Shown here in pieces: positions 7,754-37,797 of a stretch of DNA of 64,000 bases. The notes beneath the pieces were generated by a model. That model searched no databases, was not told the origin of the DNA, and saw nothing but the letters and a program-made list of their open reading frames with translations. Both the position numbers and the translations under genes were made by a program. Position 1 is the stretch's first letter. Every line of letters begins with the position of its first letter. The stretch comes from Minisyncoccota bacterium (GTDB taxonomy: Bacteria; Patescibacteriota; Minisyncoccia; Phycocordibacterales; UBA9973), in NCBI GenBank assembly GCA_018062425.1, contig JAGOSH010000001.1, forward strand, positions 16,039 through 80,038, read 5' to 3'.

Positions 7754-7782
7754 GTTTTTTTTAAGTTATAATACTAAAATAG

Positions 7783-10566
7783 ATGCAAAGCCATATATTT
7801 AAAAATACAGTCACCGCGTTTCTGGTTATGCTTTTTGTGTTTTCGCCTGTTTTGGAAGTAAAAAAAGCAGCCGCTCAAACGGGGGGAGGTTATCCTACCA
7901 CTGGTTCTTATAGTTATGGTTCTGGTGGAACCTCTGGTGGACTAAGTGGCTATATAAAAGGACTCGGCCCAGCAATAACACAACTCCCTAAATGTAAGAA
8001 AAAGATTAAGGGTGCAATCAAAAGTCTGTTTGGTAAAAGCAAGGGCATACTCGCCAAAGAAGCATCTGGCACGTTGGGCACATCCTTGGGTGGAACTATT
8101 TCTCAATCAGCAGCCCAACAAAACACTATTCAAAACTACGACAAAGAAGCTAATGACAAGTTGAAAAAACAAGATACGAAATTGAGTCGTATAGACGAAG
8201 CTACTGGTTCTCTGGACGAAAATTCTTCTTGTCTCGACTCTATTGGTAAATTAATAATAGACAGAATGATCCAGAGAATCACCCTAGCTACAGTTGAGTG
8301 GATCAAAACCGGAAACAGTGGCGGTCCAGCTTTCGTCCAAGACCCTGGCAGGTTCTTGCGAGACATTGCCAAAGAAGAAATCCTTACTTTTGGACTAGAG
8401 CTTAACCTGGGCGCAGACTGTCAGGCTGTATTTTCTGGTAATGTTTTAGGTACAACAGGTAGCACCAACATAGACTCAACAGACGATTGTTTAAACCCTT
8501 ATGGTAAGTCTTGGTTCAAATATCAAGCTGAAGCTTTTAATAAAAAATTCAACGACAATGCACGTTATTCACTAAACGAACTCATCGCTGAAACAACCCC
8601 CCAATACACCGGGGCTTCATTCCATGCTAATTTCTCCTCTGGAGGATGGAACGCTTGGACAGCGCTTACATCTGTACCCGCAAACAACCCTGTCGGTTTC
8701 GGTCTTTTGGCGGAAACTGAATTATCGAAAAGGTTAGCTGGTGTTCAAAAATCAACAGCCGAACAAGTTCAAGACGCTCTCAAAGAATCAAATGGCTTCT
8801 TGGGGGACTATCGTTGTGCAGACCCAGAAGGAACCACCAAGGACCAGCACAAAGCAGCACTCGAATCTGGAGACACAGACCTGGCTTGTAAGAGATGGGA
8901 ATACGTAACCCCGGGTAGAGCTGTAGCTGAAGAAGCTCTAAAGATAAGTCATTTCCAAGAAAATAAACTAATTCGAGCAGACACCCTAAACGACGCAATG
9001 GCGGCAATAGTAGATGCTCTTATACAAAGATTCTCAAATGAGTTGTACGAGAAGGGATTAGCTGGTTTCTCGGATGAAGGTTCTGATGGTGGGTTGATAC
9101 TGAACGCTTACGCCATCGATGGTAGTTATGGTATCAACCAAGTTGAACAAGACTTCCCGGAATACTTGCAAGGTTCAGAATGGTTTAACGCACATTCTGG
9201 TTTCAATATAAGAACTGATTTAACTCAAGCAATCATAGACGAACAAAGGGTTTTTGCCGAGAAACTGCAAACTCAAAACGAGGTGCTGGAACGAGTAATT
9301 CAGTGGACTCAGGTACTTGATTATTGTATTCCGGGACCGAGTCCAAAAAAATACAGGGAGTTGAATGAGATAGATTTGTTCTCGGATACAGAAGAAGTCA
9401 CGCTGAAATTCGACTTGGCAGAGCTAGTGCTGTCGTTTGACCCAACTGGAATATTCTCCGGTATCGGCCAAGCTATTTTTGAAAAACAACACGAAAAAGA
9501 GGTCAAGAAGATAATTGCTACTCGTCTGGGCCTCATGTTCGATATACACATATATGGTGCTTTCGGATACACCGAACATGAAGACCAGCTAAATATCCAA
9601 CAAGACCAAATCTTGAACAAAGACGATATGGAAGGTTTGGGTAAAAACATCATTGCCTCCTACAAGGAAGTTATCCATAACACATACTTCAACGGTTCAA
9701 AGTCGGCTGCACCTATGCCAATAGTTACCAACGAAGCGCGGAATGAATTTGAAAGAATTGATGCCTACAAAGGAATCATTGAGGAAAACGATGATAGGGT
9801 TGGATTAATGAATGCCGTCGTACAAAGACTTGGTAGAATCAAAGAAACAATCGAAGACCTGGGACCACAGCCAGACCCTACTGATCCAGCTTTTGAGGAT
9901 TACGAAAACTCATTGAAGCCATTCATCGCAGAGTTCGGTCGTCTAACAGGTGAAATGGTGACAGGGGATGATATTGCTAAAGCCCATAAACTGCTACAAG
10001 AAATGGAAGATAAGGAGGTCTATATTCACGATGACCTTCTAACCGGTCCTGGTGGTTGCGAGGAAGAAATGATCAAATTATACGATGATGTTCCAGATGG
10101 TAGAGCTTTGTACAGTAAATTCTACCGAAGGCAGCCATATGGCGAACCTATTCCGTATCTTTACGGTTCCGGAGTAACAGGAAGCAATATCAGTCCTTAT
10201 GACCCAGGACCAAAGGTAGTGCTTAATCCACACGACAGAACTGCTTGGAGTGAACTATCAGTAAAGAACTGGAACCCAAATGATGGTTTCTTGTTTGGTA
10301 GTGTATATTGGAATTTCTGGGCTCGACCATACGATGGAGGTAACGCATATCAAGGAGATAACAAAACACACAACCCTCCTAATTTAGGGAAAATTAGAAA
10401 TAATTCTTGTCCCGAATTTATTGATGTTGTTTATTTCTCATTTCCAAACAGAGCTGACCTTGGTGGTCTAGAACCACAAGGTGCGCTGGGTTATTCAATA
10501 CCATATGGACCTAACAACTGTGGTGTAATAACTCGAAGATTAGAAGAGATGCTTGGTATGTGGTAG
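7783..10566 (+). CDS. large hypothetical secreted protein (927 aa)
   Basis: Signal peptide followed by a Gly/Ser/Thr-rich linker and a large domain of unknown function. Confidence 0.55.
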   Translation: MQSHIFKNTVTAFLVMLFVFSPVLEVKKAAAQTGGGYPTTGSYSYGSGGTSGGLSGYIKGLGPAITQLPKCKKKIKGAIKSLFGKSKGILAKEASGTLGTSLGGTISQSAAQQNTIQNYDKEANDKLKKQDTKLSRIDEATGSLDENSSCLDSIGKLIIDRMIQRITLATVEWIKTGNSGGPAFVQDPGRFLRDIAKEEILTFGLELNLGADCQAVFSGNVLGTTGSTNIDSTDDCLNPYGKSWFKYQAEAFNKKFNDNARYSLNELIAETTPQYTGASFHANFSSGGWNAWTALTSVPANNPVGFGLLAETELSKRLAGVQKSTAEQVQDALKESNGFLGDYRCADPEGTTKDQHKAALESGDTDLACKRWEYVTPGRAVAEEALKISHFQENKLIRADTLNDAMAAIVDALIQRFSNELYEKGLAGFSDEGSDGGLILNAYAIDGSYGINQVEQDFPEYLQGSEWFNAHSGFNIRTDLTQAIIDEQRVFAEKLQTQNEVLERVIQWTQVLDYCIPGPSPKKYRELNEIDLFSDTEEVTLKFDLAELVLSFDPTGIFSGIGQAIFEKQHEKEVKKIIATRLGLMFDIHIYGAFGYTEHEDQLNIQQDQILNKDDMEGLGKNIIASYKEVIHNTYFNGSKSAAPMPIVTNEARNEFERIDAYKGIIEENDDRVGLMNAVVQRLGRIKETIEDLGPQPDPTDPAFEDYENSLKPFIAEFGRLTGEMVTGDDIAKAHKLLQEMEDKEVYIHDDLLTGPGGCEEEMIKLYDDVPDGRALYSKFYRRQPYGEPIPYLYGSGVTGSNISPYDPGPKVVLNPHDRTAWSELSVKNWNPNDGFLFGSVYWNFWARPYDGGNAYQGDNKTHNPPNLGKIRNNSCPEFIDVVYFSFPNRADLGGLEPQGALGYSIPYGPNNCGVITRRLEEMLGMW

Positions 10567-10578
10567 AAAAACAAAAAT

Positions 10579-13500
10579 ATGAAAATTTTTAAAAAAGTAA
10601 AAATAGTTGTTTCCCTAATAATTGCCTTATCTGTTGTGCCGTCTGTTGCTCATGGTGCACTAGTTCTCAAAACCTTACAAGCTATCAACGTAACACAGAG
10701 CACAGCAACACTCCTTGCACGCGTTAGCGACCTGTCTTCCCCCGAGGGAACCATAGTAGACCTGTATGGTAAATTCCGGTATTCCACCAACGCAAACAAC
10801 GCAAACAAGACCTGTGAAACAATGCAAAGTGCTACCGAGGTGGCCGCTGATCCACCACCACTCACAGGACTCGATTTTTTTACTAATAGTGCTTACAACT
10901 TCCAAAAGAAAGACCTTGGTCCTCTGCAACAAAATACACAGTATTATTATTGTGCTGTGGTTTCCAGTACCGACGATTTCTCGAGCGGTGTTTTGTATGG
11001 AAACATGGTGACTTTTACACCAGAACCACCTCCAGACTTGATAGGTAGTGTTATAACAGTAGGCTCGAGTAACGTGGGGGAAAGTACTGCAACTGTTTCT
11101 GGACAAATCATAGAAGACAATCCTAACACTCCGGTGTTTGGTCGCTTTCGTTACTCAGAAAATTTCGGTCCTAGTTGTGGATCATTGCCCAACGCGCAAA
11201 CGAGCCTCAAGAGGAAAAAAACAGGGACCGGTAATTTTACCTTTAATGTTACCTTAACAGGACTCAAGGATGGAACAAAGTATTACTATTGTGCTGTGGG
11301 AGCGGACAATTCTGACTTTTTTGATGCGGTTTATGGAAATGTAAAAGATTTTACCACTCCGTTTAGTAGTAGCACTAACAGAATCGGCCCGGTTAAAACA
11401 CTGACTGCTACACAAATAGATGACACTGAGGTTACCCTTCGTGGCAATTACACTGCTGGTGGACCAGGATTTGCGTACTTTAGAGTGTCCACGGCAGACA
11501 TACCACCGGTATTCTGTAACGACATTTACGGTTCTGACATGATTGGTGTCACCTCAAACATACCAGACCCAATAGGGTATACTACTGGCGGAGATTTTGG
11601 TGTCCACGTAAACGGACTAGACCCAGAAACTGATTACTACTACTGTGCAGTAGTATCCAACGGTGCGTACGATCCAACAAAACCTAGATCTTTAAATGAA
11701 GCTCAGATTAAATACGGAGAAGTGAAAAAATTTAGAACTCTGCCTTGTGACAGCTGCAACAATACAACCATTACTACAAAAGGATCGGATGTAATAGATA
11801 GTACTAGCGCTAATCTGACAGGGACTTTCAAGTCTTCGCGTGCAGTGAATGTTTTTTTTGAGTATTCAAAGTTTGGAATTATTGATCCAACAAACCCACA
11901 ACCACCAACAGCGCTCTGGCAAGCAACTCCAGAGAAAAAATACGGTGCCAATTCTAGCGCTAACTACAACCAGCTGATAAAAGATTTAGAGAAGAACACA
12001 ACATACAGCTTTAGAGCTGTCGCTAAGGTGACCAACCCTGATACTTCAATAGAAATATTCTACGGTCAAACACTACAATTCACCACCAACAAATACAACG
12101 GGGTTACTGGTGAAGACATTGATGATGGAAACGGAATTGATGACCCTCCTATTATAGACCCTGGAGTGGGTGTAGGTCCTGGAGTAATAATAACCACAGG
12201 AGACGACAACTGCCCAGCGGGAACAACTGGTACGTTCCCTGCATGTACGCCGATCATAAACCCATTAGGTTGTTCAATTGGGTGGCTTGGAACCCCTCCA
12301 AACTGTTTCAACCCTGGACCTGGAGGAACCGGTACTGACCCAACAACCAAAACTCCCAAAGTTACCGTAACAGCTAACCCTGTATTTATTGACATTGGTG
12401 AGTCTTCGACTATCTCGTGGACATCATCCGCTGTTTCTACTTGTACTTTAAATGGTTACGAAGTTCCAACAAGTGGCTCTGCTGACACAGGAGGGTTGAA
12501 CAATACCACTTCTTATACAGTTGCATGTTCTGGAATCAATGGATCAGCTGCGGATACTGCAAGTGTTTTTGTAAATATCGACAATGGTAACGGTGGAGGA
12601 GATTTGATTTGGGTTGATGTAACAGCTTCACCTGTTTTCTTTCCACTAAATGCTTCAGTTACCATATCTTGGACATCAGGAGGAGCACAGTTTTGTGATA
12701 GTGGAGGACATGGAGAGGGAACCAGTGGATCGTTTGTTATACCATTAGTCAAAGCTAGTTCTTCTCACACAGTAACTTGCAGTGGTCAGGCTGGCACCGC
12801 CAGCGATACTGCATACATTGTATTGTACGACACCGGCATACCACCTCTACCTACAAACATGTGTGTTCCTACCACAGAAACCAGAAACTTGAACTGCTCT
12901 GCTGGTTATACTGGTTCTGTAAGTCAAACGAGAACATCTTCTTGTCCTACCTTATACGGAAATCCTGTTTGGGCCCCTTGGACAACAACCACTAACACCT
13001 GTACAGACCCGAATGGCAACACAGCCCCACCACCTCCACCACCTCCTCCTGGAGCGTGTTTCTCAAGCAACCAAACTAGACTATTGGCCTGTCCAGCTGG
13101 TTACACTGGTTCAATAAACCAAGCACGTACCTCTTCTTGTCCTACTGCAAACGGAAATCCTGTTTGGACTGACTGGGTAACCACTTCTGAAAATTGTAAA
13201 GACGCGAATGGTAATGGTTTACCTCCAACACCACCAGGCGGCACGCCACCTGGTCCAGGGAATCCTGGAGTTCCACCTAATCCAGCAAACCCTGGAGTTC
13301 CACCTCCACCAGGCGGACCAGGTCAGAACGGCAACCCACCACTAACACAAGACAATGACAATGATGATGATGGTGTAGGTAATCCGCACGACGATGACAC
13401 TGATGGTGATTGGGATCCAAACGATACTGACACCGATGACGATGGAGACGGTATTCCTGACTTTGTTGATGGTTCACCAAATGGTCCAGGCACCGGAGAC

Positions 13501-14076
13501 GACTTTGATGGGGGAGGGCTTCCAAACTCTTTGGATACAGACATGGATGGCGACGGAATTCCAAACTACTTAGACGGTGACACTGATGGAGACGGAGTAC
13601 CTAACGATATTGACCTAGACGATGATGGAGATGGAATTCCTGACTTGCTCGACCCAACGCCTCGAGGCACACATGGTGACCGAGGAAGTGATTTGTTGGT
13701 TCTGGGTCAAGAAGCTACCCCACCAAACGACGCAATAGTACGCTATCATGAAGGTATTGAGACTGTTTTCGCAAGGCAGATTCGCCGAAACACAGCTTTC
13801 GCCGAGAGGTATGGATATACTGGGGGAGACATGGTCAACTTTGCTTGGAACCTGGCGCACACATTTGCTAAATTCTATTTCGGATACATCAACGAATCAA
13901 ACCTGGAAGTTCGAGTTTCCGCACCAGATGTTTCTGCGTACGAATTACGACAAGTGTCCAACACACTGGTTGTGTATGAGTATTACAAAAATGTGATAGT
14001 TGATATCAGGAGTAAGACAGTGGAGTTTAAAAACAAGAATCCGTACGAATATTATTTCCGCAGAATTTTCCGATAA
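10579..14076 (+). CDS. giant surface/adhesin-like protein with YYYCA-motif repeats, Cys-rich tandem modules, polyproline and thrombospondin-type-3-like Ca-binding repeats
   Basis: Signal peptide. The motifs TQYYYCAVV, TKYYYCAVG and TDYYYCAVV. Two tandem ~55-aa Cys-rich modules (C..TR.L.C.AGYTGS..Q.RTSSCPT..GNPVW..W). PPPPPPPPG. Repeated DxDxDGxxD units (DTDGDGIPDFVDG, DTDMDGDGIPNYLDGDTDGDGVPNDIDLDDDGDGIPDLLD). Confidence 0.65.
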   Translation: MKIFKKVKIVVSLIIALSVVPSVAHGALVLKTLQAINVTQSTATLLARVSDLSSPEGTIVDLYGKFRYSTNANNANKTCETMQSATEVAADPPPLTGLDFFTNSAYNFQKKDLGPLQQNTQYYYCAVVSSTDDFSSGVLYGNMVTFTPEPPPDLIGSVITVGSSNVGESTATVSGQIIEDNPNTPVFGRFRYSENFGPSCGSLPNAQTSLKRKKTGTGNFTFNVTLTGLKDGTKYYYCAVGADNSDFFDAVYGNVKDFTTPFSSSTNRIGPVKTLTATQIDDTEVTLRGNYTAGGPGFAYFRVSTADIPPVFCNDIYGSDMIGVTSNIPDPIGYTTGGDFGVHVNGLDPETDYYYCAVVSNGAYDPTKPRSLNEAQIKYGEVKKFRTLPCDSCNNTTITTKGSDVIDSTSANLTGTFKSSRAVNVFFEYSKFGIIDPTNPQPPTALWQATPEKKYGANSSANYNQLIKDLEKNTTYSFRAVAKVTNPDTSIEIFYGQTLQFTTNKYNGVTGEDIDDGNGIDDPPIIDPGVGVGPGVIITTGDDNCPAGTTGTFPACTPIINPLGCSIGWLGTPPNCFNPGPGGTGTDPTTKTPKVTVTANPVFIDIGESSTISWTSSAVSTCTLNGYEVPTSGSADTGGLNNTTSYTVACSGINGSAADTASVFVNIDNGNGGGDLIWVDVTASPVFFPLNASVTISWTSGGAQFCDSGGHGEGTSGSFVIPLVKASSSHTVTCSGQAGTASDTAYIVLYDTGIPPLPTNMCVPTTETRNLNCSAGYTGSVSQTRTSSCPTLYGNPVWAPWTTTTNTCTDPNGNTAPPPPPPPPGACFSSNQTRLLACPAGYTGSINQARTSSCPTANGNPVWTDWVTTSENCKDANGNGLPPTPPGGTPPGPGNPGVPPNPANPGVPPPPGGPGQNGNPPLTQDNDNDDDGVGNPHDDDTDGDWDPNDTDTDDDGDGIPDFVDGSPNGPGTGDDFDGGGLPNSLDTDMDGDGIPNYLDGDTDGDGVPNDIDLDDDGDGIPDLLDPTPRGTHGDRGSDLLVLGQEATPPNDAIVRYHEGIETVFARQIRRNTAFAERYGYTGGDMVNFAWNLAHTFAKFYFGYINESNLEVRVSAPDVSAYELRQVSNTLVVYEYYKNVIVDIRSKTVEFKNKNPYEYYFRRIFR

Positions 14077-14139
14077 AAGTTTCCGTAAAATATAGTTTTT
14101 GTTTCCTTGGTTTGCTACAATGATTAAGTATTTGCATTA

Positions 14140-16461
14140 ATGAAAGCTATCAAGAAAAACTTTTGGTTAAAAGTCGCACTCGGAACATTATTCCTTGCTG
14201 TTTTTCTTGTGCCTGTAAGTTTCAAGAAAGAAAACAGCAATGATTTTATATCTCTCAAAACTAACACTGCTTACGCTGAAATAGAAAAATTAGTAATACT
14301 ACCAGTTGATGCAGCTGGCATCACGGCAACCGGTGTCAATTTGACTATTGAAGTTACTGGTCAACCTGGAACAGATGAGAAAATAAGTCTCACCCTTAAA
14401 ACCAAGTGGAGCCTAATAAACACCTGGGCTATTCCTGACACCATGATTGACAAGACAGCGGCGAGCCAGACAATAAACCTGCCACTTCAATACAACTTCG
14501 ACAAAGACACAATTTATCAAATTACTGTTTTTAAACCAGACAATTCTGTTATTTCCAACACTGTAGAATTCAAAGGGGATGGTAGTGCGATAGACAACAA
14601 TGGTGGACCGGCTGGTACCACCTCAACAGGACAGAACCCTATTCCACAGAAACCATCCCTTGATATTGGTTGTGGTTATCACCCAGAAACCTGGTTTACA
14701 AAATGCCCTGTACTTTTTTTGTATAATTTTATATACGAACCTATTTCTTATCTAACAACTCTAGCGGCAAAATTTCTAGACTTCTTTGTGTATTATTCGA
14801 TCAGCAGTGACGCATATCGTAGTGGTTTCGTAGAAAAAGCCTGGAGTGTTGTCCGAGACATTTCCAATATGTTTTTTATCATCGCGCTTCTGTATATTGC
14901 AATAAAAACAATACTGCAGATGAATACAAGCGATAACAAGAGAGCCATTGGATACATAATCATGATAGCCCTTTTAATAAACTTCAGTTTGTTTGCTACA
15001 CGAGTGGTGATAGATGCATCGAACATCTTGGCTCGGGTGTTTTATAACAACATCACTCCGTATGACGAAAACGGTACGGCAATTCCCCCAAATAGCAACA
15101 AACCAAAATCAGTATCTGTGGGATTGGTTCGAACTTTTGAACCACAAAAGGTGATTAGTGATCCAAAGACCAATACTGCCCAGTTTGCTATCGTAACAAT
15201 AATCTTCATAATACTTCTTGTTTACATGATTTTGATGTTTATCTCGATATCTATGCTTTTCCTGGGACGAGTTGCTGGACTTTGGATGGCGATGATGTTT
15301 TCACCTCTAGCCTTCACCTCAGTCGCTATGCCTTTCTCGATTCCTAAATTCAGTTTCAAAGAATGGAAGACTGACCTATTTAAGTTAGCTTTTATGGCGC
15401 CTATTTATGCTTTCTTCCTTTATGTCATTATTCTATTTGGAGGATTTTTGGAAGCAATTCAGTATGATACAGCCAATACTGCTTCTGGCCCGAACGGTTG
15501 GTTGGATGCTCTGATGAAAAACATAATTCCTTTTATGTTGATATTTGCATTACTCAAGGAGGCCAAATCTATAACCAAAGACTATGCTGGTAAAATGGGT
15601 GAGACGTTCAACAGCGCTGGAGCAGTGGTGGGTGGTTTGGCTCTGGGCGCAGCCACTGGAGGCTTGGCGATGGCTGGACGCGCATCGTTGGGTCGCGCTG
15701 GTTCTTGGATAGCTAGAAACACCAGTAAAGATACTTTTGGAGGCAGGGTTGCTAACAGGCTTGGTAGAAGAATGGGTACTGGTAGTTGGGATGCTCGTAA
15801 TGTAAAAGTTTTCGGTAAAGGACTCTCTAATACTGGTCTCAAAAATCTAAACACTGTTAGTACTCCAAAGGCAGGTGGTTGGGAAAAGATTCGCGAAGAT
15901 AAGAAACAAAAGAGATTAAAACGCGCAGAAGAAGTCAGTAAGGTTGGATACGGGGAAGGGGTGGCTAAGGATTTGCGTAAAGCTGAGTTAGATCTACACA
16001 CACTTCTAGACGAAAACAAATCGAAACTTGAATCTTTAGACAAAGACATTGCAGGGGCAAGGCAAAAACTGCAAGACGCAAAAACAGCAGATGATGGTAG
16101 CACAGCATCAAAATACAAAATAGCTAAATACAACGAGCAAATAAAGGTGTTTAATAAACAAAAAACAGCTCTTAGAAAAGGAGTAGATATTAAGATGGAT
16201 TATATTGATTTCGATGAAAATGATGCAGTTGTATCAAAAAGCATAGATGAAAAATACGCTAGCATTAAGGTTGGAGGAAAATCAATTCATGACTTAGAAA
16301 CAGATATTGTTCCTAAGGCTAGAAAAGCTGTGAGAGATAAAGAGAAAAAACGAAAGCTCGCTTACGCTGACAGACTAAGTATGCGATTCTGGTCGGATGG
16401 GGCGAAAGAAGTAGCACATAAAGTACGTTCAGGAGCTATCTACGAAAACAAAACAGCTTAA
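14140..16461 (+). CDS. polytopic membrane protein, VirB6/TrbL-like (putative T4SS channel component)
   Basis: Signal peptide, a ~180-aa extracellular domain, at least 5 TM helices, a Gly-rich segment GGLALGAATGGLAMAGRASLGRAG, then a Lys-rich coiled-coil tail. The architecture resembles Gram-positive VirB6 homologues (PrgH/TcpH). Assigned from topology and gene context only. Confidence 0.4.
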   Translation: MKAIKKNFWLKVALGTLFLAVFLVPVSFKKENSNDFISLKTNTAYAEIEKLVILPVDAAGITATGVNLTIEVTGQPGTDEKISLTLKTKWSLINTWAIPDTMIDKTAASQTINLPLQYNFDKDTIYQITVFKPDNSVISNTVEFKGDGSAIDNNGGPAGTTSTGQNPIPQKPSLDIGCGYHPETWFTKCPVLFLYNFIYEPISYLTTLAAKFLDFFVYYSISSDAYRSGFVEKAWSVVRDISNMFFIIALLYIAIKTILQMNTSDNKRAIGYIIMIALLINFSLFATRVVIDASNILARVFYNNITPYDENGTAIPPNSNKPKSVSVGLVRTFEPQKVISDPKTNTAQFAIVTIIFIILLVYMILMFISISMLFLGRVAGLWMAMMFSPLAFTSVAMPFSIPKFSFKEWKTDLFKLAFMAPIYAFFLYVIILFGGFLEAIQYDTANTASGPNGWLDALMKNIIPFMLIFALLKEAKSITKDYAGKMGETFNSAGAVVGGLALGAATGGLAMAGRASLGRAGSWIARNTSKDTFGGRVANRLGRRMGTGSWDARNVKVFGKGLSNTGLKNLNTVSTPKAGGWEKIREDKKQKRLKRAEEVSKVGYGEGVAKDLRKAELDLHTLLDENKSKLESLDKDIAGARQKLQDAKTADDGSTASKYKIAKYNEQIKVFNKQKTALRKGVDIKMDYIDFDENDAVVSKSIDEKYASIKVGGKSIHDLETDIVPKARKAVRDKEKKRKLAYADRLSMRFWSDGAKEVAHKVRSGAIYENKTA

Positions 16462-16470
16462 AACAAAAAC

Positions 16471-16950
16471 ATGACTGATAAATTAAAAGAAACAATTGAA
16501 GAAGAAGTAGTTAAAATGCCTAGAGAATTCCAGGAAGCTTTTACAGCGTCAAACTGGATACCTGTCTCCGAAGACATTGCGCGCAAATACAAACTGTATT
16601 TGGATGAAGAGATAAATAAATTCCAAGCAGAAGTTTTTTTGGTTCTATCTGGTGTTGTTCAATTCGAACTACTTTCTGTGAACATAGAAAACGAACTTGG
16701 TTTGAGCAAAGAAGAAGCAGAAAAAATAGAAGGGGAAGTACTTGAAAGAGTAATTTTTCCTTTTTCCAGTAACCTGGAATCCAAGGCAGAGTGGAAAATG
16801 GATATTAAGAATTCAAAATGGGATCAAAATCTTGATTTTATAACGTCAGGAGGGGACTACTCAGCTTTTCTGGATATTAAAAAAAGTTCCCCAGATCTAA
16901 CAACAACGGAAACAAAATCAGAAACAAACCAGAGCAATCCAAGTGTTTAA
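16471..16950 (+). CDS. hypothetical protein
   Basis: Intact ORF in the operon; no recognisable motif. Confidence 0.5.
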   Translation: MTDKLKETIEEEVVKMPREFQEAFTASNWIPVSEDIARKYKLYLDEEINKFQAEVFLVLSGVVQFELLSVNIENELGLSKEEAEKIEGEVLERVIFPFSSNLESKAEWKMDIKNSKWDQNLDFITSGGDYSAFLDIKKSSPDLTTTETKSETNQSNPSV

Positions 16951-16966
16951 GTGTTAAAATAATCTT

Positions 16967-17593
16967 ATGGATAATACAATCGATTTACTAAAAATGAAGA
17001 TAGAGCGAGCCCGAGAAGTACTACCACCGGAAACCTTGGTAGCGATTGATGCTGTGCCTTGGCGAGAAGTCATATATAACATGCGTGAAAGGAAAGGGTT
17101 CAACTTGACTCAACTAGAAGATCTGGAACTTGAGACTGAGTTGGTGCTTTGTGGTCTTGTTCCACCAGAGAAATATCCAAACGAACTAGCCACCAGGATG
17201 GGACTCAGCCTACCTCAGGTCACAGTATTGGTTGAAGAAATGAACGATTTGGTGTTCAAGAAAATCCGCGAGGAGTTAGTAAAAAAAATTAGTAGTAACA
17301 AGGCTTTGGGCTTGGATACCAAAACCCCAATACCTAGTAATAATTTTGTAAACACAGAAGACGCCAACCAAAGGACTGTGGATATCAAAGTAATAAAGCA
17401 AGCCATCGCTCGAAAAGAAGAGGATGAGAACAATTTGATCAACTCTATCTTGGGTCAGAAGCTCTCTGGTGCTCATATTTCTCCTCAAACCAAAACAGAG
17501 TACTCTTTGGGTAATATATCACGAGCAGAAGAACCAAAAACAACCGCAAAAAGTAGTTCTGTGGATCCTTATCGGATGAATCCAGGGGAATAA
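16967..17593 (+). CDS. hypothetical protein
   Basis: Intact ORF in the operon; no TM segment and no recognisable motif. Confidence 0.5.
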   Translation: MDNTIDLLKMKIERAREVLPPETLVAIDAVPWREVIYNMRERKGFNLTQLEDLELETELVLCGLVPPEKYPNELATRMGLSLPQVTVLVEEMNDLVFKKIREELVKKISSNKALGLDTKTPIPSNNFVNTEDANQRTVDIKVIKQAIARKEEDENNLINSILGQKLSGAHISPQTKTEYSLGNISRAEEPKTTAKSSSVDPYRMNPGE

Positions 17594-17651
17594 AACTCTT
17601 TTTTATTTAAAATATTGTATACTAATATAAGTCGCAAGACTGAATCTAATA

Positions 17652-18092
17652 ATGCAATTCAAGGTTCCACAATTCTTGGATATTGAGGATAAACTTTTTG
17701 GGCCTTTTACTTTCAGCGAGTTCGTATACTTGGCTGGAGGAGCAGGACTTTGTTATGTGGTATACAAAGCCCTGGGTCTTTTGCTTGGCTTGATACCCAT
17801 AGCGGCCATCGCCGGACTCGCGGTAGCTTTAGTGTTTTACAAACCCAACGACAAGCCCTTGGTCAACATGATCGAAGCTGGCATCAAATACGCAGCTCAA
17901 AGCAAACTGTACATCTGGAAGCGAAGAGTTGTGAAATCTACTACCAAAACTCCTGCTCCTAGCCACAGAAACCCACAAACCATAAACGTAAGCCCGGAAC
18001 ATACCATCAAATTAACTGGTAGCAAACTTCGAGATTTAGCTTGGAGTTTAGATATTTTAGACACAAAAAAAGAAGGCACCAATGGCAATTAA
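17652..18092 (+). CDS. small two-TM membrane protein, VirB3-like
   Basis: 146 aa with two adjacent hydrophobic helices, sitting immediately upstream of the VirB4 ORFs as in PrgI/VirB3 arrangements. Assigned from position and topology. Confidence 0.4.
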   Translation: MQFKVPQFLDIEDKLFGPFTFSEFVYLAGGAGLCYVVYKALGLLLGLIPIAAIAGLAVALVFYKPNDKPLVNMIEAGIKYAAQSKLYIWKRRVVKSTTKTPAPSHRNPQTINVSPEHTIKLTGSKLRDLAWSLDILDTKKEGTNGN

Positions 18093-18732
18093 CGCACGCA
18101 CAACTCAAGAGTTCATACCAATCAAAGAAGTCCGTGATGGTGTTGTTGTTTTAAAAGACGGCGGTCTTCGAGCTATCATTCTAGCGAACTCTATTAACCT
18201 TTCTTTGAAATCTGAAGATGAACAGAAGGCTACAATCATGCAGTTTCAATCACTTTTAAATACTTTGGATTTCCCGATCCAGATATCTGTCCAATCTCGT
18301 CGGCTAGACATACGTCCATATTTGCTTTTGCTTGAAAACAGAATGAAGGTTCAAACCGAACCCTTGCTCAAGCTCCAAACCAAAGAATATATGGAGTTTA
18401 TCAAGAACTTTACTGATACCGTCAGCATCATGACCAAAAACTTCTTCATTGTTGTACCTTTCACTCAAACAGCATTACCAACTAGCGGGGGTGGTGATTT
18501 CTTTAGTTTCTTTTCCAAAAAAACAAAGAGCGAACTAACGAAAGTAGCCGAGATGGATTTCGAAGAAAAGCGTTCTCAACTCGAACAGAGGGTGGGGGTA
18601 GTGGAGCAAGGGTTAGCGAGTTGTGGAATCAAATCAATCCAGTTAGGCAGTGAAGAAGTAGTGGAAGCCTTTTACAAAGTTTTTAACCCTGGTGAATCTC
18701 AAGGTAAAATTGACCTTGGAGAAATCAAATAA
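18082..18732 (+). CDS. VirB4/TrbE N-terminal domain, separate ORF (split gene or frameshift)
   Basis: FIPIKEVRDGVVVLKDGGLRAIILANSINLSLKSEDEQKATIMQFQSLLNTLDFPIQI matches the conserved N-terminus of Gram-positive conjugative VirB4 ATPases. It ends 2 nt before the ATPase ORF, which is in a different frame. Confidence 0.55.
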   Translation: MAINARTTQEFIPIKEVRDGVVVLKDGGLRAIILANSINLSLKSEDEQKATIMQFQSLLNTLDFPIQISVQSRRLDIRPYLLLLENRMKVQTEPLLKLQTKEYMEFIKNFTDTVSIMTKNFFIVVPFTQTALPTSGGGDFFSFFSKKTKSELTKVAEMDFEEKRSQLEQRVGVVEQGLASCGIKSIQLGSEEVVEAFYKVFNPGESQGKIDLGEIK

Positions 18733-18734
18733 CA

Positions 18735-20573
18735 ATGGGAATTTTTGATACAATTTTGGGTAAAAAGAAAGAAGAGATTAGTACAACTAATGCTTCTATT
18801 ATGCCGATCTTGCCGGAGGAAATCTATGAATCCGCGACCCTCGAATTACAAGACGTCATAGCACCCTCAGCGCTTAAAATCGAACCGAAATCCATAAACC
18901 TAGGGGAGAAGATCGCTCGTACATTTTTCATCATATCTTATCCTAGGTTTCTATCAGACAACTGGTTCTCGCCGATAGTGAATTTGGACAAAGTATTCGA
19001 TGTCGCTATTTTCGTCCACCCGATCGACACCTCACTAGCGCTACGTCAATTCCAAAAGAAAGTAGCCGAAGTGCAGAGCCAGATAAATGTCCGCGAATCC
19101 CGTGGAGTGGTGCGCGACCCCATGCTCGATACTGCGTACCAAGACCTAGAGTCTCTACGTGACAACCTAATTCAAGCTCAAGAAAAGCTGTTTGATGTTG
19201 GAATCTATATCACTATCTACGCAGACAACGAACTTGAACTCTATAAAATCGAAAATGAAATCAAGTCTATATTGGAATCAAAGTTGGTATATATAAAACC
19301 AGCACTTTTCCAACAAGAAGATGGATTTAAAAGTGTTATTCCGATAGGCACAGACTTTTTGAATATCAACCAGAAATTAAATTCAGAACCGCTTTCAAGT
19401 GTTTTCCCATTCGTTTCTTTCGACTTAACATCTGACAGAGGTATCCTCTACGGTATCAACCGCCACAACTCGTCTTTGGTGATCTTTGATCGTTTCTCTC
19501 TCGAGAACTATAACTCGGTTACTTTTGCCAAGTCAGGTAGTGGTAAAAGTTACGCCACCAAGCTCGAGATATTGCGGTCACTTATGTTCGACGTTGATGT
19601 TATCGTCATAGACCCGGAAAGGGAATATGAATTCTTGTCAGAAGCAGTCGGTGGTAGGTATTTCAACATCTCACTTTCATCCGACCACCACATCAACCCT
19701 TTTGATTTACCAATACCCAGAGAAGACGAAACTCCAGAAGATGTGCTACGTTCAAACATCATCAACCTGGTTGGCTTGTTTCGGTTAATGCTCGGAGGAT
19801 TAACCCCAGAAGAAGACGCTTTGGTTGACCGGGCAATCTCTGAGACTTATGCCATCAAAGATATAACCCCTAACTCCGACTTTGCCAATATTGAACCACC
19901 ACTACTATCAGACTTTGAAATGGTGCTCTCTGGTATGGAAGGGTCCGAATCCGTCGTACAACGTCTGGTTAAATACACTCGTGGATCTTGGTCTACTTTC
20001 ATTAATAGGCCTTCGAACGTTGATATCAACAAGAAGTTTGTAGTCTTTTCGGTGCGAGATATGGAAGACGAATTAAAACCGATCGCCATGTACATCGTAA
20101 CCCACTATATCTGGAATACTATTAGAAAAAACCTAAAGAAACGCTTGTTGGTGGTGGATGAGGCTTGGTGGATGATGAAATCAGAAGATACTGCTTCGTT
20201 TTTGTATTCGTTGGCCAAAAGAGGACGTAAATACTACTTGGGTTTGGCTACTATTACCCAGGACGCCGCAGACTTCATGAAGTCTCCATACGGAGTACCT
20301 ATTATCACCAACTCTTCAATTCAAATACTGCTGAAACAGTCTCCGAGTACTATTGAAATCCTCCAAAAGACATTTAACCTAACTGACGAAGAAAAATACT
20401 TGCTCTTGGAGTCTGGTGTAGGTGAAGGGATATTCTTTGCTGGCTTAAAACACGTTGCCATCAAGATAGTGGCATCTTATACCGAAGACCAAATCATCAC
20501 TTCAGATCCTTCACAAATATTATCAATCAAAAAATCGAAGGATGACCTCGAATCCCTCTCTGGTAAGTCTTAA
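18735..20573 (+). CDS. virB4: VirB4/TrbE/CagE-family type IV secretion ATPase (ATPase domain)
   Basis: Walker A FAKSGSGKSYATK, Walker B LLVVDEAWWMM (the DEAW signature), and ITQD near the C-terminus. Lengths 216+612 sum to about the typical VirB4 length. Confidence 0.8.
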   Translation: MGIFDTILGKKKEEISTTNASIMPILPEEIYESATLELQDVIAPSALKIEPKSINLGEKIARTFFIISYPRFLSDNWFSPIVNLDKVFDVAIFVHPIDTSLALRQFQKKVAEVQSQINVRESRGVVRDPMLDTAYQDLESLRDNLIQAQEKLFDVGIYITIYADNELELYKIENEIKSILESKLVYIKPALFQQEDGFKSVIPIGTDFLNINQKLNSEPLSSVFPFVSFDLTSDRGILYGINRHNSSLVIFDRFSLENYNSVTFAKSGSGKSYATKLEILRSLMFDVDVIVIDPEREYEFLSEAVGGRYFNISLSSDHHINPFDLPIPREDETPEDVLRSNIINLVGLFRLMLGGLTPEEDALVDRAISETYAIKDITPNSDFANIEPPLLSDFEMVLSGMEGSESVVQRLVKYTRGSWSTFINRPSNVDINKKFVVFSVRDMEDELKPIAMYIVTHYIWNTIRKNLKKRLLVVDEAWWMMKSEDTASFLYSLAKRGRKYYLGLATITQDAADFMKSPYGVPIITNSSIQILLKQSPSTIEILQKTFNLTDEEKYLLLESGVGEGIFFAGLKHVAIKIVASYTEDQIITSDPSQILSIKKSKDDLESLSGKS

Positions 20574-20596
20574 AAGATGATATAATAATTGAGAGT

Positions 20597-21601
20597 ATGT
20601 TAAAGTCACATTTTTTCTTAAAAACAATTCTTGCGATCGTTTTCTTAGCTTTGGTTTTCTTTCTGCCTTTTTCTACCACCCGAGCCCAAGTACAAGAAAC
20701 TGATGTTTCGATCGGAGTGAATCCAACCTACCCAAAACCAGGGGAGAGTGTGGTTGTGACTTTAAACAGTTTTACCGTCAAACTAGACAAAGCTTTTATT
20801 ATTTGGTCGGTGAACGGTGTTGAACGCGCCAATGGCGTCGGCAAGAAAAGTTTTTCTTTTAATCTCGATCCTTTCAGTTCAAAAACACAGGTTTCTGCTT
20901 CTGTATCAAACGTGGCTGGTGATACTATCACTAAAAATATTTTCATAAACTCAGTAGATGTGGATGTACTTTGGGAAGCGGTAGATTCGTATGTTCCACC
21001 TTTTTATCGCGGTAAAGCACTCGGTGTCCGTGAAGGTAATTTCAAAATTGTGGTTATTCCAAATATTATTTCCTCTCGTGGAAAACTAAGCCCAGGTAAC
21101 CTTTCTTATAACTGGAAAAAGGACGGGGCTGTTCAGGTTTCAGTCTCTGGTTTTGGTAAAGATTCTTTTGTTTACAAAAATAGTTACCTGGACGAAAGCA
21201 ACGAAATACAAGTCGAGATATCTGACGTTGAAAGCAAAACCAAAACTGGTAGCAAGATCACCATACCAACCCTATCTAAACCGGAAATATTTTTCTATCG
21301 CAGAGACCCAAAGCTCGGACTAGCCCTTGAAAAAACAATTGTAGACGGATACTCTCTAGGAGAAACTCCTGAAACTATCGTTGCAGTACCATACTTTTTC
21401 TCACCCAAAAACCTAAATTCTCAAATACTTAGTTTTAATTGGTCATCTGGAGGAGAGGGTATAAAACCAAACCGAAACAGAAACGAGGTCACAGTAGTTG
21501 CACCAAAAGGTAGCAGTGGTGGCACAGAGCTAAAAGTGGTGATTGAAAACAAAGGTAGTTTATTCCAAACTTTAGAGAAAAAATTAAATGTTACTTTTTA
21601 A
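20597..21601 (+). CDS. hypothetical secreted beta-rich protein
   Basis: Signal peptide followed by repeated Ig-like beta segments. Confidence 0.5.
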   Translation: MLKSHFFLKTILAIVFLALVFFLPFSTTRAQVQETDVSIGVNPTYPKPGESVVVTLNSFTVKLDKAFIIWSVNGVERANGVGKKSFSFNLDPFSSKTQVSASVSNVAGDTITKNIFINSVDVDVLWEAVDSYVPPFYRGKALGVREGNFKIVVIPNIISSRGKLSPGNLSYNWKKDGAVQVSVSGFGKDSFVYKNSYLDESNEIQVEISDVESKTKTGSKITIPTLSKPEIFFYRRDPKLGLALEKTIVDGYSLGETPETIVAVPYFFSPKNLNSQILSFNWSSGGEGIKPNRNRNEVTVVAPKGSSGGTELKVVIENKGSLFQTLEKKLNVTF

Positions 21602-22583
21602 AACAAAAAAAATAATCAGCTTGGCTTTGTTGGTTTTCATGCTTTTTGCTTTTTCTTTCTCTTTGGTTGGAGCTCAGGATCCTGATCCAACCACTCTCAC
21701 AGACACACAAAACCAAGGAGGTGACACTACGAGTACTTACAAACTGCTTGAGCCATTGGGTACACCAAACGGCAACCTGACCGAATTCACCACTGGTGAC
21801 CCGTGTCCGTTTGTGCGTTATTTGAACATTGTTATAGAAATATTCCTTGGGATATGTGCAGTGCTCGCGATGATTATGATCATCGGTGGGGGATTTGAAT
21901 ATGTAACTAGCGAGCTTCCATCTGCTAAAGGTAACGGTAAAGCAAGAATAACCAACGCAGTTTTTGGTTTCATTATCGCCCTAGCTGGTTATGTGCTTTT
22001 GAACACAGTGAACCCCAAACTCCTAGACCTTTGTCCGAAAATACCCCAAGCAGTTTTAACTGTAGGCCCAGATGCTGGTGACGGTACTGTGGATTCAAAT
22101 TGTGCCGCGGGAAATGCTACGTATGACACGAGTGTTCCTATGACAGCAGCTCTTGGTCCTGCAATTGAAAAACTACAAAATGGGTGGACAATTTCTAAAA
22201 TAAACGTCTATTCAAATGGAAGCGTACAAATTGATTTAATGAAGGATGGACAACTTGATAATAGTACCTTTATTGGAATGTCACCTGGATTAAACGGTTT
22301 TGCTCCTCTTGGAACAGCAGTATCTGGAGACAAGAAAACACCTCTTGGAGACTTCTTTATAAACGGTATTAACTATACTCCAGGTAAAGCTCAGTGTAGC
22401 CAAACAGGATCTAATATGGGAGCCGCTTTTTGGAACCTAGGTCCAATGACTAGGGGTATTGGTATTCACGGTAACGCAACTGGTACACTGTCTAATACAA
22501 ATGGATGTGTTCGTCTTACAAATGCAGACATTTTAGCATTACAACCTTATATACATAACGGTATCCCGGTAATAATTCAATAA
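21588..22583 (+). CDS. VirB2/TrbC-like two-helix membrane protein fused to a C-terminal L,D-transpeptidase (YkuD) domain
   Basis: Signal peptide, then two hydrophobic helices separated by a short loop (IVIEIFLGICAVLAMIMIIGGG ... AVFGFIIALAGYVLL). The C-terminal IHGNATGTLSNTNGCVRLTNADILAL matches the YkuD catalytic His/Cys motif. Confidence 0.6.
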   Translation: MLLFKTKKIISLALLVFMLFAFSFSLVGAQDPDPTTLTDTQNQGGDTTSTYKLLEPLGTPNGNLTEFTTGDPCPFVRYLNIVIEIFLGICAVLAMIMIIGGGFEYVTSELPSAKGNGKARITNAVFGFIIALAGYVLLNTVNPKLLDLCPKIPQAVLTVGPDAGDGTVDSNCAAGNATYDTSVPMTAALGPAIEKLQNGWTISKINVYSNGSVQIDLMKDGQLDNSTFIGMSPGLNGFAPLGTAVSGDKKTPLGDFFINGINYTPGKAQCSQTGSNMGAAFWNLGPMTRGIGIHGNATGTLSNTNGCVRLTNADILALQPYIHNGIPVIIQ

Positions 22584-22588
22584 AATTT

Positions 22589-23941
22589 ATGTCCAAAAGA
22601 AATATTATACTTTTATTTATACTTCTCGTGATTCTAGCTCTTGTGGCTATGGTATCTAGAGCTCCGAAGCTTGAAGTGGAAACTGATTCTGGGAATTCTG
22701 GAAACAATTTTTTCAGTAACTTTTTTAGGTTTCCAGGACAAGGGAACAAAAATCCCTCCACTGGTGGAGGCAAAACAACTGGCACAGACACAGCTGACAA
22801 TGAATACGTAGTAGAGGAAATGCTTTCTTTACGTAAAGTTTCTTCTATGCCGGTAGCTGGTTTCGGAGTATTCGACAAAGAAATCTACACTTACGTAACA
22901 GCACCAGAAAAACCAGCCGATGTGCCTGAATCAGAAGACAAAACAACACCAAATACCAAAACACCGAAAACTGTGCCTGTAGCCCCAGAGACAGAGTTTC
23001 AGACCACTGTACGCTATGTGGACAAGGGTACTGGCAACATCTACCAAAGCGAAGCAGGCAAGGTTGATGAAAGAAAATTCTCAGAAATAATAATGCCTGG
23101 AATTGCTGAAGCATTCTTTGGTAAAAAAGGATCTGCTGTAATACTGCGATACCTACAACCAAACACTGAAATCATTGAGACTTTTATTCGAGAATTTCCA
23201 GAAGAAGTATTGGGTGCCGATGTGAGTTCAGAAGGAGAGGTGACTGGAAACTTTTTACCGCAAAACATTGTTGATGTTTCTGTCTCCGGAGATGGGGAAA
23301 GTGTCTTTTATATATCCAATATCAAATCAGTTGCCTATGGTGTGGTGACCAATACCTCTGGTGCTAACAAAACCCAAGTATTTACATCACCCTATACCGA
23401 ATGGTTGGCCCAGTGGCCTAACAAAAGTCTTATAACAGTAACCACTAAACCTGCTTCAGGTATACCTGGTTTCGTGTATGGCATTAATCCAAACATGAAA
23501 GATTTTAATAAAATTATGGGTGGGGTGAATGGTTTAACCACCTTGACGAGTCCTAACGGTAAATTAGTTTTATTTGGCGACGATCGATTAAATCTATCTA
23601 TCCTAAACCGTGAAACAGGGGAGTCTAAAAACACAAATCTGAGGACCTTGCCAGAGAAATGTGTTTGGGGTTACGACAATGAAGTGGTTTTCTGTGGTGT
23701 TCCTCAATTCACTCCTTTTGGTAACTATCCAGACTCGTGGTACAAAGGACAAACCTCTTTTGCCGATAGCATCTGGCAAATATCTGTAAATGATATTGGT
23801 AACAACCAAGTAATATCGAACCCTATAACCGAAGTGAGCGAGAGTTTGGATGTTATTCGTCCAACTTTGAGTACCGACGGAAAATACTTATTTTTCATAA
23901 ACAAAAAAAGCCCCTATCTATGGGAGCTTCGATTGAAGTAA
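22589..23941 (+). CDS. hypothetical membrane-anchored protein, possibly beta-propeller-like
   Basis: N-terminal TM helix, a Gly/Thr linker and a beta-rich C-terminal region. Confidence 0.45.
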   Translation: MSKRNIILLFILLVILALVAMVSRAPKLEVETDSGNSGNNFFSNFFRFPGQGNKNPSTGGGKTTGTDTADNEYVVEEMLSLRKVSSMPVAGFGVFDKEIYTYVTAPEKPADVPESEDKTTPNTKTPKTVPVAPETEFQTTVRYVDKGTGNIYQSEAGKVDERKFSEIIMPGIAEAFFGKKGSAVILRYLQPNTEIIETFIREFPEEVLGADVSSEGEVTGNFLPQNIVDVSVSGDGESVFYISNIKSVAYGVVTNTSGANKTQVFTSPYTEWLAQWPNKSLITVTTKPASGIPGFVYGINPNMKDFNKIMGGVNGLTTLTSPNGKLVLFGDDRLNLSILNRETGESKNTNLRTLPEKCVWGYDNEVVFCGVPQFTPFGNYPDSWYKGQTSFADSIWQISVNDIGNNQVISNPITEVSESLDVIRPTLSTDGKYLFFINKKSPYLWELRLK

Positions 23942-37759: not shown

Positions 37760-37797
37760 TTTGCTTATATTATATAGCAACTTTTCAAAATGGTATA

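Follow-up and report, generated by a model that had tools for sequence, protein, structure and literature searches.

The wall hydrolases of type IV secretion systems (T4SSs) include VirB1 (with an SLT domain), PrgK of pCF10 (LytM, SLT and CHAP), TcpG, and CwlT of ICEBs1 (muramidase and NlpC/P60). Like the protein described here, these are encoded by T4SS operons and are either membrane-tethered or secreted into the zone of the cell wall. That protein, a fusion of a VirB2/TrbC-type pilin module with a YkuD domain, is encoded by a Minisyncoccota bacterium (Patescibacteriota; Minisyncoccia; Phycocordibacterales; UBA9973), specifically within 64,000 nucleotides of contig JAGOSH010000001.1 of assembly GCA_018062425.1 (positions 16,039 to 80,038 of the forward strand), a stretch which in its entirety is here called ‘the window’. 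It differs from the above hydrolases in that its anchor is a pilin module rather than a plain transmembrane (TM) helix or signal peptide, and in that, instead of several enzyme domains in tandem, it carries just one, which is exchanged between strains.

The T4SS of Patescibacteria has been described as related to monoderm MPF-FATA systems, as lying beside dnaA, and as possessing VirB2-like PF18895 pilins, with a relaxase usually absent and VirB1 mostly so (PMC12102498). In one Saccharibacterium this system is essential for epibiotic growth (PMC10633639; review PMC12857230). As in the window, the described systems combine a PrgI/VirB3 plus VirB4 operon, no relaxase in the cluster, and an origin-proximal chromosomal position, the layout of the window being that of the published Patescibacteria T4SS. 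The pilins, too, are of a common HMM (hidden Markov model) family (PF18895/PF04956) and share a two-helix hairpin preceded by a signal peptide (Wang et al. 2023, PMC10633639; Quinonero-Coronel et al. 2025, PMC12102498). Those described are short, however, and often are found as arrays of 2-11 divergent copies, whereas the window has a single copy per cluster, and one with a 174-aa enzyme domain. Table S3 of PMC12102498 does contain at least one VirB2 match with the cluster Pfam NlpC/P60, without comment, and YkuD and transpeptidases go unmentioned in the main text of that survey.

Already known, that is, are the Patescibacteria T4SS, its position, its pilins, T4SS-linked wall hydrolases, and the YkuD fold. 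A full-text search of the accessible literature found no description of pilin-enzyme fusions, of YkuD as a T4SS-linked enzyme, or of cassette exchange. We know as well of no prior report of the YkuD fold as a T4SS wall enzyme, and public annotation of these fusions is merely as “L,D-transpeptidase” or ErfK/SrfK.

As read from its sequence, the product of the fusion gene is the sole pilin-module protein of VirB2/TrbC type in an origin-proximal T4SS operon of a Paceibacteria/Parcubacteria-like member of the Patescibacteria. In terms of sequence and models, this product is a Sec-exported, pilin-family membrane hairpin with an intact YkuD active site, one that is predicted to be found outside of the cell. 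The reading which we favor, as probable though well short of assured, is that of a pilin-targeted wall-remodelling enzyme of the chromosomal, origin-proximal Patescibacteria T4SS, with the YkuD domain trimming or exchanging peptidoglycan stem peptides.

The fusion protein and its recurrence

The open reading frame (ORF) of the fusion overlaps the upstream gene by 14 nt, and the parts of its product are placed in Table 1 along with the neighbouring genes. A Kyte-Doolittle scan yields three hydrophobic segments, i.e., about aa 8-26, which is the signal peptide, plus helices centred on aa 82-99 and 128-134. A signal-peptidase I type site, between VGA and QD, is predicted from sequence after aa 29. 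An AlphaFold2 (AF2) model, built on a 30-sequence alignment, has a mean pLDDT (predicted local distance difference test) of 82.6 and independent domains with a disordered or low-confidence linker, the order being signal helix, disordered spacer, beta-hairpin, long helical hairpin, low-confidence linker, and then a C-terminal domain of pLDDT >90. The signal peptide and two hydrophobic helices, separated by a short polar loop, that the original prediction had read from this ORF are borne out both by hydropathy and by AF2, and the two halves of the fusion that it had claimed are recovered independently by Pfam.

Table 1. Positions in the window of the fusion gene, of the parts of its product, and of neighbouring genes.
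Feature	Position	Strand	Basis
Fusion gene, 331-aa pilin-module/YkuD protein, ATG start	21588..22583 (stop codon counted)	+	ORF list; Pfam YkuD and T4SS_pilin
Predicted Sec signal peptide, aa 1-29 (MLLFKTKK...SLVGA, then QD)	21588..21674	+	Hydropathy; AF2 helix 2-23, then disorder; AxA-type site read from sequence
Low-complexity T/Q/D/G spacer, aa 30-48, variable length	21675..21731	+	pLDDT <50 for aa 22-46
VirB2/TrbC-superfamily pilin module, aa 49-157	21732..22058	+	Pfam T4SS_pilin; conserved columns; AF2 secondary structure
Swappable C-terminal enzyme cassette, aa 158-331: conserved PDAGDxTxD linker plus YkuD domain	22059..22580	+	DNA-identity drop versus relatives; pLDDT >90 for aa 170-331
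YkuD catalytic motif IHGNATGTLSNTNGCVRL (His294, Cys307, Arg309)	22464..22517	+	Alignment to B. subtilis YkuD; homologue conservation; Foldseek
773-aa polytopic membrane protein with C-terminal coiled-coil tail	14140..16461	+	Translation; conserved in synteny
PrgI/VirB3-like membrane protein	17652..18092	+	Pfam PrgI, 28.5 bits (cutoff 27)
216-aa protein	18082..18732	+	Precomputed Pfam annotation of orthologues as TraC-like (PF26593)
T4SS ATPase of VirB4 type, two genes upstream of the fusion	18735..20573	+	Pfam P-loop_TraG 1e-23, AAA_10, DUF87; 78-96% identical in syntenic loci
334-aa secreted protein, always directly upstream of the fusion gene	20597..21601	+	ORF list; synteny
450-aa N-terminally anchored protein, always directly downstream of the fusion gene	22589..23941	+	ORF list; synteny
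Genes of the replication-origin region: minus-strand jag(R3H)-yidC-rnpA-rpmH and plus-strand dnaA	23951..27351		Pfam

A homologue search with the fusion protein returned 41 proteins, including one from another assembly which is 100% identical to that of the window (P0001). All of the YkuD-type homologues also contain the pilin module, save for two shorter sequences: P0041, which retains just the last 46 module residues (the loop and second helix), and P0035, which is 192 aa in length and lies outside of the alignment. Looked for in other genomes, the fusion is found in >30 independent assemblies, a recurrence which places the pilin/YkuD architecture far beyond chance. With its junction motifs conserved as well, an assembly chimera or gene-calling artefact is ruled out. 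A partial fusion gene plus the downstream gene also occur on a 1.9-kb contig (L012, CAZXEV010000112.1) of a metagenome-assembled genome titled ‘Gammaproteobacteria’, which probably is a mis-binned Patescibacteria contig.

The spacer which follows the signal peptide is replaced in relatives by long extensions, such that the pilin module can begin anywhere from aa 30 to aa 400 among homologues. In a Pfam census, the N-terminal extensions of some family members hold TIG, Big_1, DUF5018 or Pur_ac_phosph_N domains, i.e., ones which are Ig-like, TIG or FN3-like. With variable extensions before the module and an enzyme after it, both of the outward-facing ends of the module may be viewed as capable of bearing cargo. 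Cys-rich repeats (CPNxPGxQxxxPxGY...G-C) are seen between signal peptide and module in P0016 (aa 35-170; locus L002, 10001-11428) and in other long homologues. The YkuD cassette itself opens with an acidic PDAGDxTxD stretch (window 22059-22110, aa 158-174), within which, across 30 homologues, D162, G164 and D165 are near-invariant and D169 is invariant. This may be a metal-binding or docking element that is particular to the YkuD-type cassette.

The pilin module

Proceeding from its N terminus, the module consists of a beta-hairpin with a YxLLxPL motif (about aa 49-69, or 50-68 in the AF2 model), Cys73, AF2 helix 1 (74-107), a short loop, SELPSAKGNGKAR, with three basic residues, helix 2 (111-140), and then a near-invariant LNTxNPxLL motif (138-146) and Cys149. 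Given this basic inter-helix loop, both ends of the hairpin should, by the positive-inside rule, face outward. The fusion matches Pfam T4SS_pilin (PF18895) over aa 79-138 with E=3e-6 and 27.6 bits versus a cutoff of 26.6, and with TrbC/VirB2 (PF04956) it scores 13 bits, below threshold. Among siblings that share this module, T4SS_pilin scores are 28-37 bits, and one of them, P0038, passes TrbC/VirB2 as well (30.7 versus a cutoff of 27.9). As expected of VirB2/TrbC pilins there is, that is, an HMM score above the curated cutoff, albeit marginally, a hairpin of two helices joined by a basic loop and preceded by a signal peptide, and a gene context of VirB4/VirB3 type. What is not as expected is the size, since rather than a small protein consisting solely of the pilin fold (mature length of ~70-120 aa), the window protein is 331 aa long and ends in a 174-aa enzymatic domain.

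The fusion gene is the sole ORF to match the module profile both within the window and within each related locus, and a second, stand-alone pilin gene nearby thus is ruled out for the window and, in relatives, for ~10 kb to either side. Consistent with the T4SS cluster that the original prediction had described, PrgI/VirB3 and a VirB4-type ATPase are encoded upstream on the same strand.

The two cysteines that flank the helices, one before helix 1 and the other after helix 2, tend to occur together, with both present in 117 cases, neither in 33, the first only in 14, and the second only in 0 (Fisher p=8e-24, uncorrected for phylogeny). A disulfide which staples the outer ends of the hairpin would fit this co-variation of Cys73 and Cys149, and such a stapled hairpin might be viewed as loosely analogous to the cyclised T-pilin. 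The predicted orientation of the hairpin draws on this outer Cys pair as well as on the positive-inside rule.

From a different perspective, the N-terminal part could be nothing other than a generic membrane anchor, with its T4SS adjacency incidental. Simple N-terminal anchors are common among YkuD proteins, and the fold search with the module is non-specific. T4SS_pilin/TrbC HMM matches nevertheless are found across the family, and YxLLxPL, LNTxNPxLL and the Cys pair are strongly conserved. In addition, virB4 is found two genes upstream of the fusion-slot gene in 9/9 related loci that have enough upstream flank, versus 0/25 generic YkuD loci from other phyla that have these T4SS-operon neighbours. 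There exists as well a stand-alone member of 143 aa, P0056, which stops a few residues past the NPxLLxxC motif, i.e., near the fusion junction. A generic anchor, together with a gene lying outside of T4SS clusters in relatives, was what the original prediction had named as fatal to its pilin analogy. This anchor reading fails, being contradicted by the family-wide profile matches, the conserved motifs and the fixed virB4 synteny, and we hold it to be very improbable.

Exchange of C-terminal cassettes between close relatives

Several close homologues share the N-terminal module, with up to 81% identity, and differ in their C-terminal domain. P0012, P0015, P0034 and P0039 carry NlpC/P60, with or without an Amidase_5 signature, while P0010 and P0036-P0038 carry a lysozyme/SLT-type ES...GLFQI motif, there with sub-threshold matches to Pfam SLT and SLT_3. 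Both the NlpC/P60 and the SLT-like pilin fusions occupy the slot which is orthologous to that of the YkuD fusion of the window. That T4SSs normally recruit hydrolases, as the original prediction had pointed out, thus applies here too, with relatives bearing these domains on the same pilin and in the same slot. The sibling cassettes (SLT-like, NlpC/P60, CHAP/Amidase_5) furthermore are of the same enzyme families as are found in VirB1, PrgK, TcpG and CwlT.

Between the window and its relatives, DNA identity drops from 70-92% to 26-46% over ~22040-22620, recovering in the next gene. Versus L001 (NlpC/P60), whose VirB4 is 96% identical in amino acids, flanks plus module are 70-85% identical and the enzyme segment is 26-46% identical over 22062-22620; versus L042 (NlpC/P60) the corresponding values are about 76% and about 33-39%. 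Versus L041 (SLT-like), upstream genes plus module are 88-92% identical and the enzyme segment about 33-46%. For L039 (NlpC/P60) versus L040 (SLT-like), that is, two relatives of the window compared with each other, identity is 97-100% over >6 kb and 37-43% over an enzyme segment of about 540 bp. The junction of the cassette is found just 3' of the near-invariant LNTxNPxLLxxC motif. YkuD, as judged from these alignments, is one of several interchangeable C-terminal cassettes on a shared pilin module, the main feature of the gene and one that lay out of reach of the original prediction.

Alignment of L041 with the window is lost downstream of the cassette (L041 4241-5387; ENA ERZ4902915, a low-coverage contig at about 2x), and the C terminus of P0010 is unlike that of its siblings P0036 and P0038. 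The discontinuity could be a real rearrangement or instead a low-coverage assembly error.

A conserved N-terminal delivery module along with an abrupt switch, between close strains, in the C-terminal enzyme is a pattern shared with polymorphic toxins (Rhs, contact-dependent inhibition, MafB, and type VI and type VII secretion system effectors), and here, too, the C-terminal domains are unrelated to one another. The downstream gene of ~440-450 aa, however, does not change with the cassette, as it is constant across cassette types: L001, for example, has it at 73% amino acid identity, and the L039 and L040 copies are about 99% identical in DNA. Given this conservation whatever the cassette that precedes it, there is no cassette-linked immunity gene. 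Also unlike polymorphic toxins, no immunity gene follows the cassette and no orphan cassettes are found nearby in the loci examined, while the recognisable cassettes are all wall enzymes, with none a nuclease, deaminase or pore-former.

The YkuD domain and its chemistry

Pfam YkuD (PF03734) matches aa 243-330 of the fusion with E=6e-12 and 46.8 bits, versus a cutoff of 23.4. The stretch IHGN...TNGCVRLTN (aa 293-312) has its His and Cys aligned with the catalytic pair of B. subtilis YkuD, and in the alignment of 30 homologues H294 and C307 are invariant and R309 is >=90% conserved. The His/Cys motif singled out by the original prediction therefore is intact, and of what characterizes YkuD proteins there is the HMM score, a catalytic His plus an [S/T]-x-G-C-x-R motif (TNGCVR), and a predicted YkuD beta-sandwich fold.

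With Foldseek, the C-terminal domain matches B. subtilis YkuD (4a1i/1y7m) with E=6e-7 to about 1e-6 and a probability of 1.0. Further matches with a probability of 1.0 are to 7o21, 4xzz, 6xj6 and Ldt structures, and DpaA as well as Ldts from mycobacteria and enterococci also appear among the matches. Structure prediction of the two halves thus recovered the YkuD fold for the one, and for the other, the module alone, gave no significant structural match. The lowest-rmsd (root-mean-square deviation) neighbours are Bd1075, Csd6 and Pgp2, at 3.9-6.9 A over 144-163 columns, with a probability of 1.0 and 16-21% sequence identity. Those three we take to be L,D-carboxypeptidases and DpaA, an amidase. 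The YkuD fold takes in carboxypeptidases, amidases and exchange enzymes besides transpeptidases and, with carboxypeptidases and an amidase among the structural matches, it does not in itself imply cross-linking. Csd6 (H. pylori), Pgp2 (C. jejuni) and Bd1075 (Bdellovibrio) have the same catalytic His/Cys as the window YkuD but, unlike the window protein, have an NTF2-like extra domain and a role in cell-shape determination.

Rather than in net 3-3 cross-linking, the chemistry of the window YkuD more probably lies in L,D-carboxypeptidase or endopeptidase activity or in the exchange of D-amino acids. That is, trimming, cleavage or exchange are to be favored since YkuD is interchangeable with an endopeptidase and with a lysozyme. 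The original prediction had instead spoken of a cross-linking enzyme that could locally remodel or re-seal the wall around the apparatus. In such a reading, a true L,D-transpeptidase would form 3-3 cross-links which reinforce or re-seal the wall of the producer. In its favor are a catalytic motif of the canonical L,D-transpeptidase kind and structural matches that include B. subtilis YkuD and the Ldts of mycobacteria and enterococci, and a membrane tether would put the domain in the wall zone. Near-identical relatives, though, fill the same slot with lytic NlpC/P60 or SLT-like domains, it is improbable that a cross-linker could functionally replace a lysozyme or the reverse, and the best-superposing solved structures are of carboxypeptidases. 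Cross-linking and re-sealing of the wall is therefore the less well supported part of what had been suggested, and we consider it unlikely.

Covalent anchoring represents a still different use of the same chemistry. The E. coli ErfK/YbiS/YcfS enzymes (LdtA-C) attach Lpp to peptidoglycan, and protein-to-peptidoglycan attachment thus is an established activity of the fold. By analogy, YkuD could be attaching a T4SS or pilus protein covalently to peptidoglycan, whether itself or a neighbouring secreted protein, thereby securing the machine within the wall, and two conserved secreted proteins do flank the fusion gene. Anchoring leaves the interchangeability with hydrolases unexplained, however, and strikes us as distinctly improbable.

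The wider module family

A word-indexed homologue search with the 106-aa module alone gave no match. An exhaustive search, in which a module-only profile was scored against 1.84 billion representative proteins, later gave 35,042 clusters at E<=1e-3, of which 600 reach E<=1e-30. Among the best 144 module relatives, PF18895 is matched in 143/144 (E<0.01) and PF04956 in 46/144. The C-terminal partners of these 144, in a census which leans toward fusions as the profile was built from fusions, are NlpC/P60 (16), VanY/Peptidase_M15_4 (about 15), SLT types (about 25), Amidase_5/CHAP (about 11), Extensin-like_C (4) and YkuD (4). The enzymes are all peptidoglycan-acting, a statement which is limited to recognisable partners since ~half of the C-terminal tails of the family have no Pfam assignment, and a few members have Ig-like or TIG-type domains instead.

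The largest group of unclassified tails (40/144; P0054, P0063, P0068 and others) has no Pfam or PDB sequence match. It possesses invariant residues (Cys x3, GTE-W-H, H...D and HxH) and may be an undescribed LAS-type metallopeptidase family. Another 8/144 tails (P0064, P0072, P0101, P0124 and others) share a conserved EGF...SYxTNNPGNIG...YQYLRIY motif, have no Pfam match, and, as a guess from that motif, might be lysozyme-like. There are in addition tandem ‘poly-pilin’ members, P0043 (1775 aa), P0047, P0060, P0066, P0067, P0076 and P0111, with many modules per polypeptide and, at the extreme, up to 17 matched stretches in 1775 aa (best TrbC E=1e-42).

Proposed action, and on which wall

In the mechanism which we propose, the pilin module would bring the enzyme to the secretion machine, there either to be docked in the adjoining membrane or to be extruded as a subunit of a pilus or stalk. 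The YkuD domain, on its flexible linker, would then act upon peptidoglycan stem peptides near the machine. It would thereby supply the local wall remodelling which in other T4SSs is done by VirB1, PrgK, TcpG or CwlT, and which in Patescibacteria is reported to be mostly absent. In common with T4SS hydrolases, the gene belongs to a T4SS operon and its product has a signal peptide and a C terminus that is predicted to face outward; the domain which is found there, however, is YkuD rather than SLT, CHAP, NlpC/P60 or LytM.

The wall in question could instead be that of a host. The pilin module, whether at the tip of a pilus or stalk or polymerised, would in that case display the enzyme as a host-directed ‘warhead’, attacking or editing host peptidoglycan at the contact site for uptake or secretion, a possibility that we entertain tentatively. 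In a variant which seems to us similarly possible, if doubtful, horizontally exchangeable cassettes (YkuD, NlpC/P60, lysozyme-like, VanY/M15 and others) would be tuned to host wall chemistry, constituting a polymorphic, pilus-borne, wall-breaching system that underlies an epibiotic lifestyle. Replacement of the enzyme segment inside of 97-100% identical DNA, along with repeated swaps, indeed resembles diversifying selection on a target, and turnover of cassettes is hard to explain if that target is the cell’s own, constant wall. Both ends of the module are also predicted to face outward, some members having Ig-like, TIG or FN3-like domains in their N-terminal extensions, and a Saccharibacterium cannot grow epibiotically without its T4SS (PMC10633639).

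There is precedent, too, for destructive use of the fold by a secretion system, as Tlde1/Tlde1a of Salmonella is a YkuD-fold antibacterial effector with L,D-carboxypeptidase and D-amino-acid exchange activity (PMC9638812). Tlde1, though, is a soluble effector of a type VI secretion system and has a cognate immunity protein, Tldi1, whereas the window cassette is without a co-varying, immunity-like gene. Tlde1a is absent, moreover, among the Foldseek matches listed for the C-terminal domain. Action on a host is further called into question by a downstream gene that is conserved whatever the cassette, by there being no demonstrated pilus or delivery, and by the self-wall remodelling enzymes of phages and conjugative elements being modular and shuffled as well. 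As to which wall is the substrate, strain-level cassette turnover and the Tlde1a precedent favor that of the host, with the lack both of an immunity gene and of a demonstrated pilus urging caution.

A number of points weigh against the pilin-targeted, stem-peptide-trimming enzyme that we favor. The T4SS_pilin score of the window fusion is just 1 bit over cutoff. Searched as a profile against PDB sequences, the module had no significant VirB2/TraA match, and just a weak match to a MacB TM helix, while Foldseek with the module model gave no significant match to solved VirB2/TraA pilins, a helical hairpin being too simple to be diagnostic. By E-value, the top Foldseek match of the C-terminal domain is B. 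subtilis YkuD, a transpeptidase-family protein, and sequence does not tell the transpeptidase from the carboxypeptidase direction. No pilus is known from these organisms, and polymerisation might be hindered by the 174 aa of enzyme that each subunit would carry. To these can be added the leaning of the partner census and the unassigned tails. The tandem poly-pilin proteins are left unexplained by a cassette model.

The operon and its surroundings

The fusion gene lies inside of a co-directional block of genes, ~6006 to 23941 (+). Pfam scans of the two genes which flank it gave no match, nor did a scan of the 773-aa protein further upstream, which in terms of position and topology is a candidate VirB6/PrgH-like channel subunit. 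The two flanking genes occur in every related locus and evolve faster than VirB4, with 71-73% versus 96% amino acid identity in L001. Wherever a locus has downstream flank, the 450-aa gene directly follows the fusion slot, and in nearly all of these loci jag, yidC and dnaA come next. Ahead of the T4SS core, at 6006-14076 (+), are four consecutive genes for secreted proteins (267, 314, 927 and 1165 aa) that are syntenic in relatives, with two of the four giving weak FN3-like (Pur_ac_phosph_N) matches. These could be adhesins or T4SS surface components.

Beyond dnaA, the window holds dnaN, a class A penicillin-binding protein and tyrS (Pfam). Other large, Pfam-scanned ORFs are housekeeping, i.e., PolA, UvrABC, ribonucleotide reductase and Fpg, plus a PilB/GspE-type ATPase (T2SSE, E=4.5e-110) at 36062-38065 (-), ~12 kb from the T4SS cluster, which presumably belongs to the type IV pilus machinery that these bacteria are known to have. 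Neither a relaxase nor a coupling protein is found among the Pfam-scanned ORFs of the window and, with the cluster chromosomal and beside dnaA in all relatives, a conjugative element, including an integrative and conjugative element, is ruled out.

Implications

In surveys of the Patescibacteria T4SS, its wall hydrolase VirB1 is reported as mostly absent (PMC12102498). The fusion would represent, in one large lineage at least, a concrete answer as to the missing hydrolase, that is, a wall enzyme which is fused to the pilin itself. The exchange of that enzyme between near-identical strains provides in turn a testable handle on action upon the cell’s own wall versus that of a host. If the reading is true, then the VirB2-type pilin, viewed until now as a small structural subunit, could also be one that carries an enzyme as its cargo, and the YkuD fold would join the T4SS-associated wall enzymes, of interest both to T4SS research and to an understanding of the epibiotic lifestyle of Patescibacteria.

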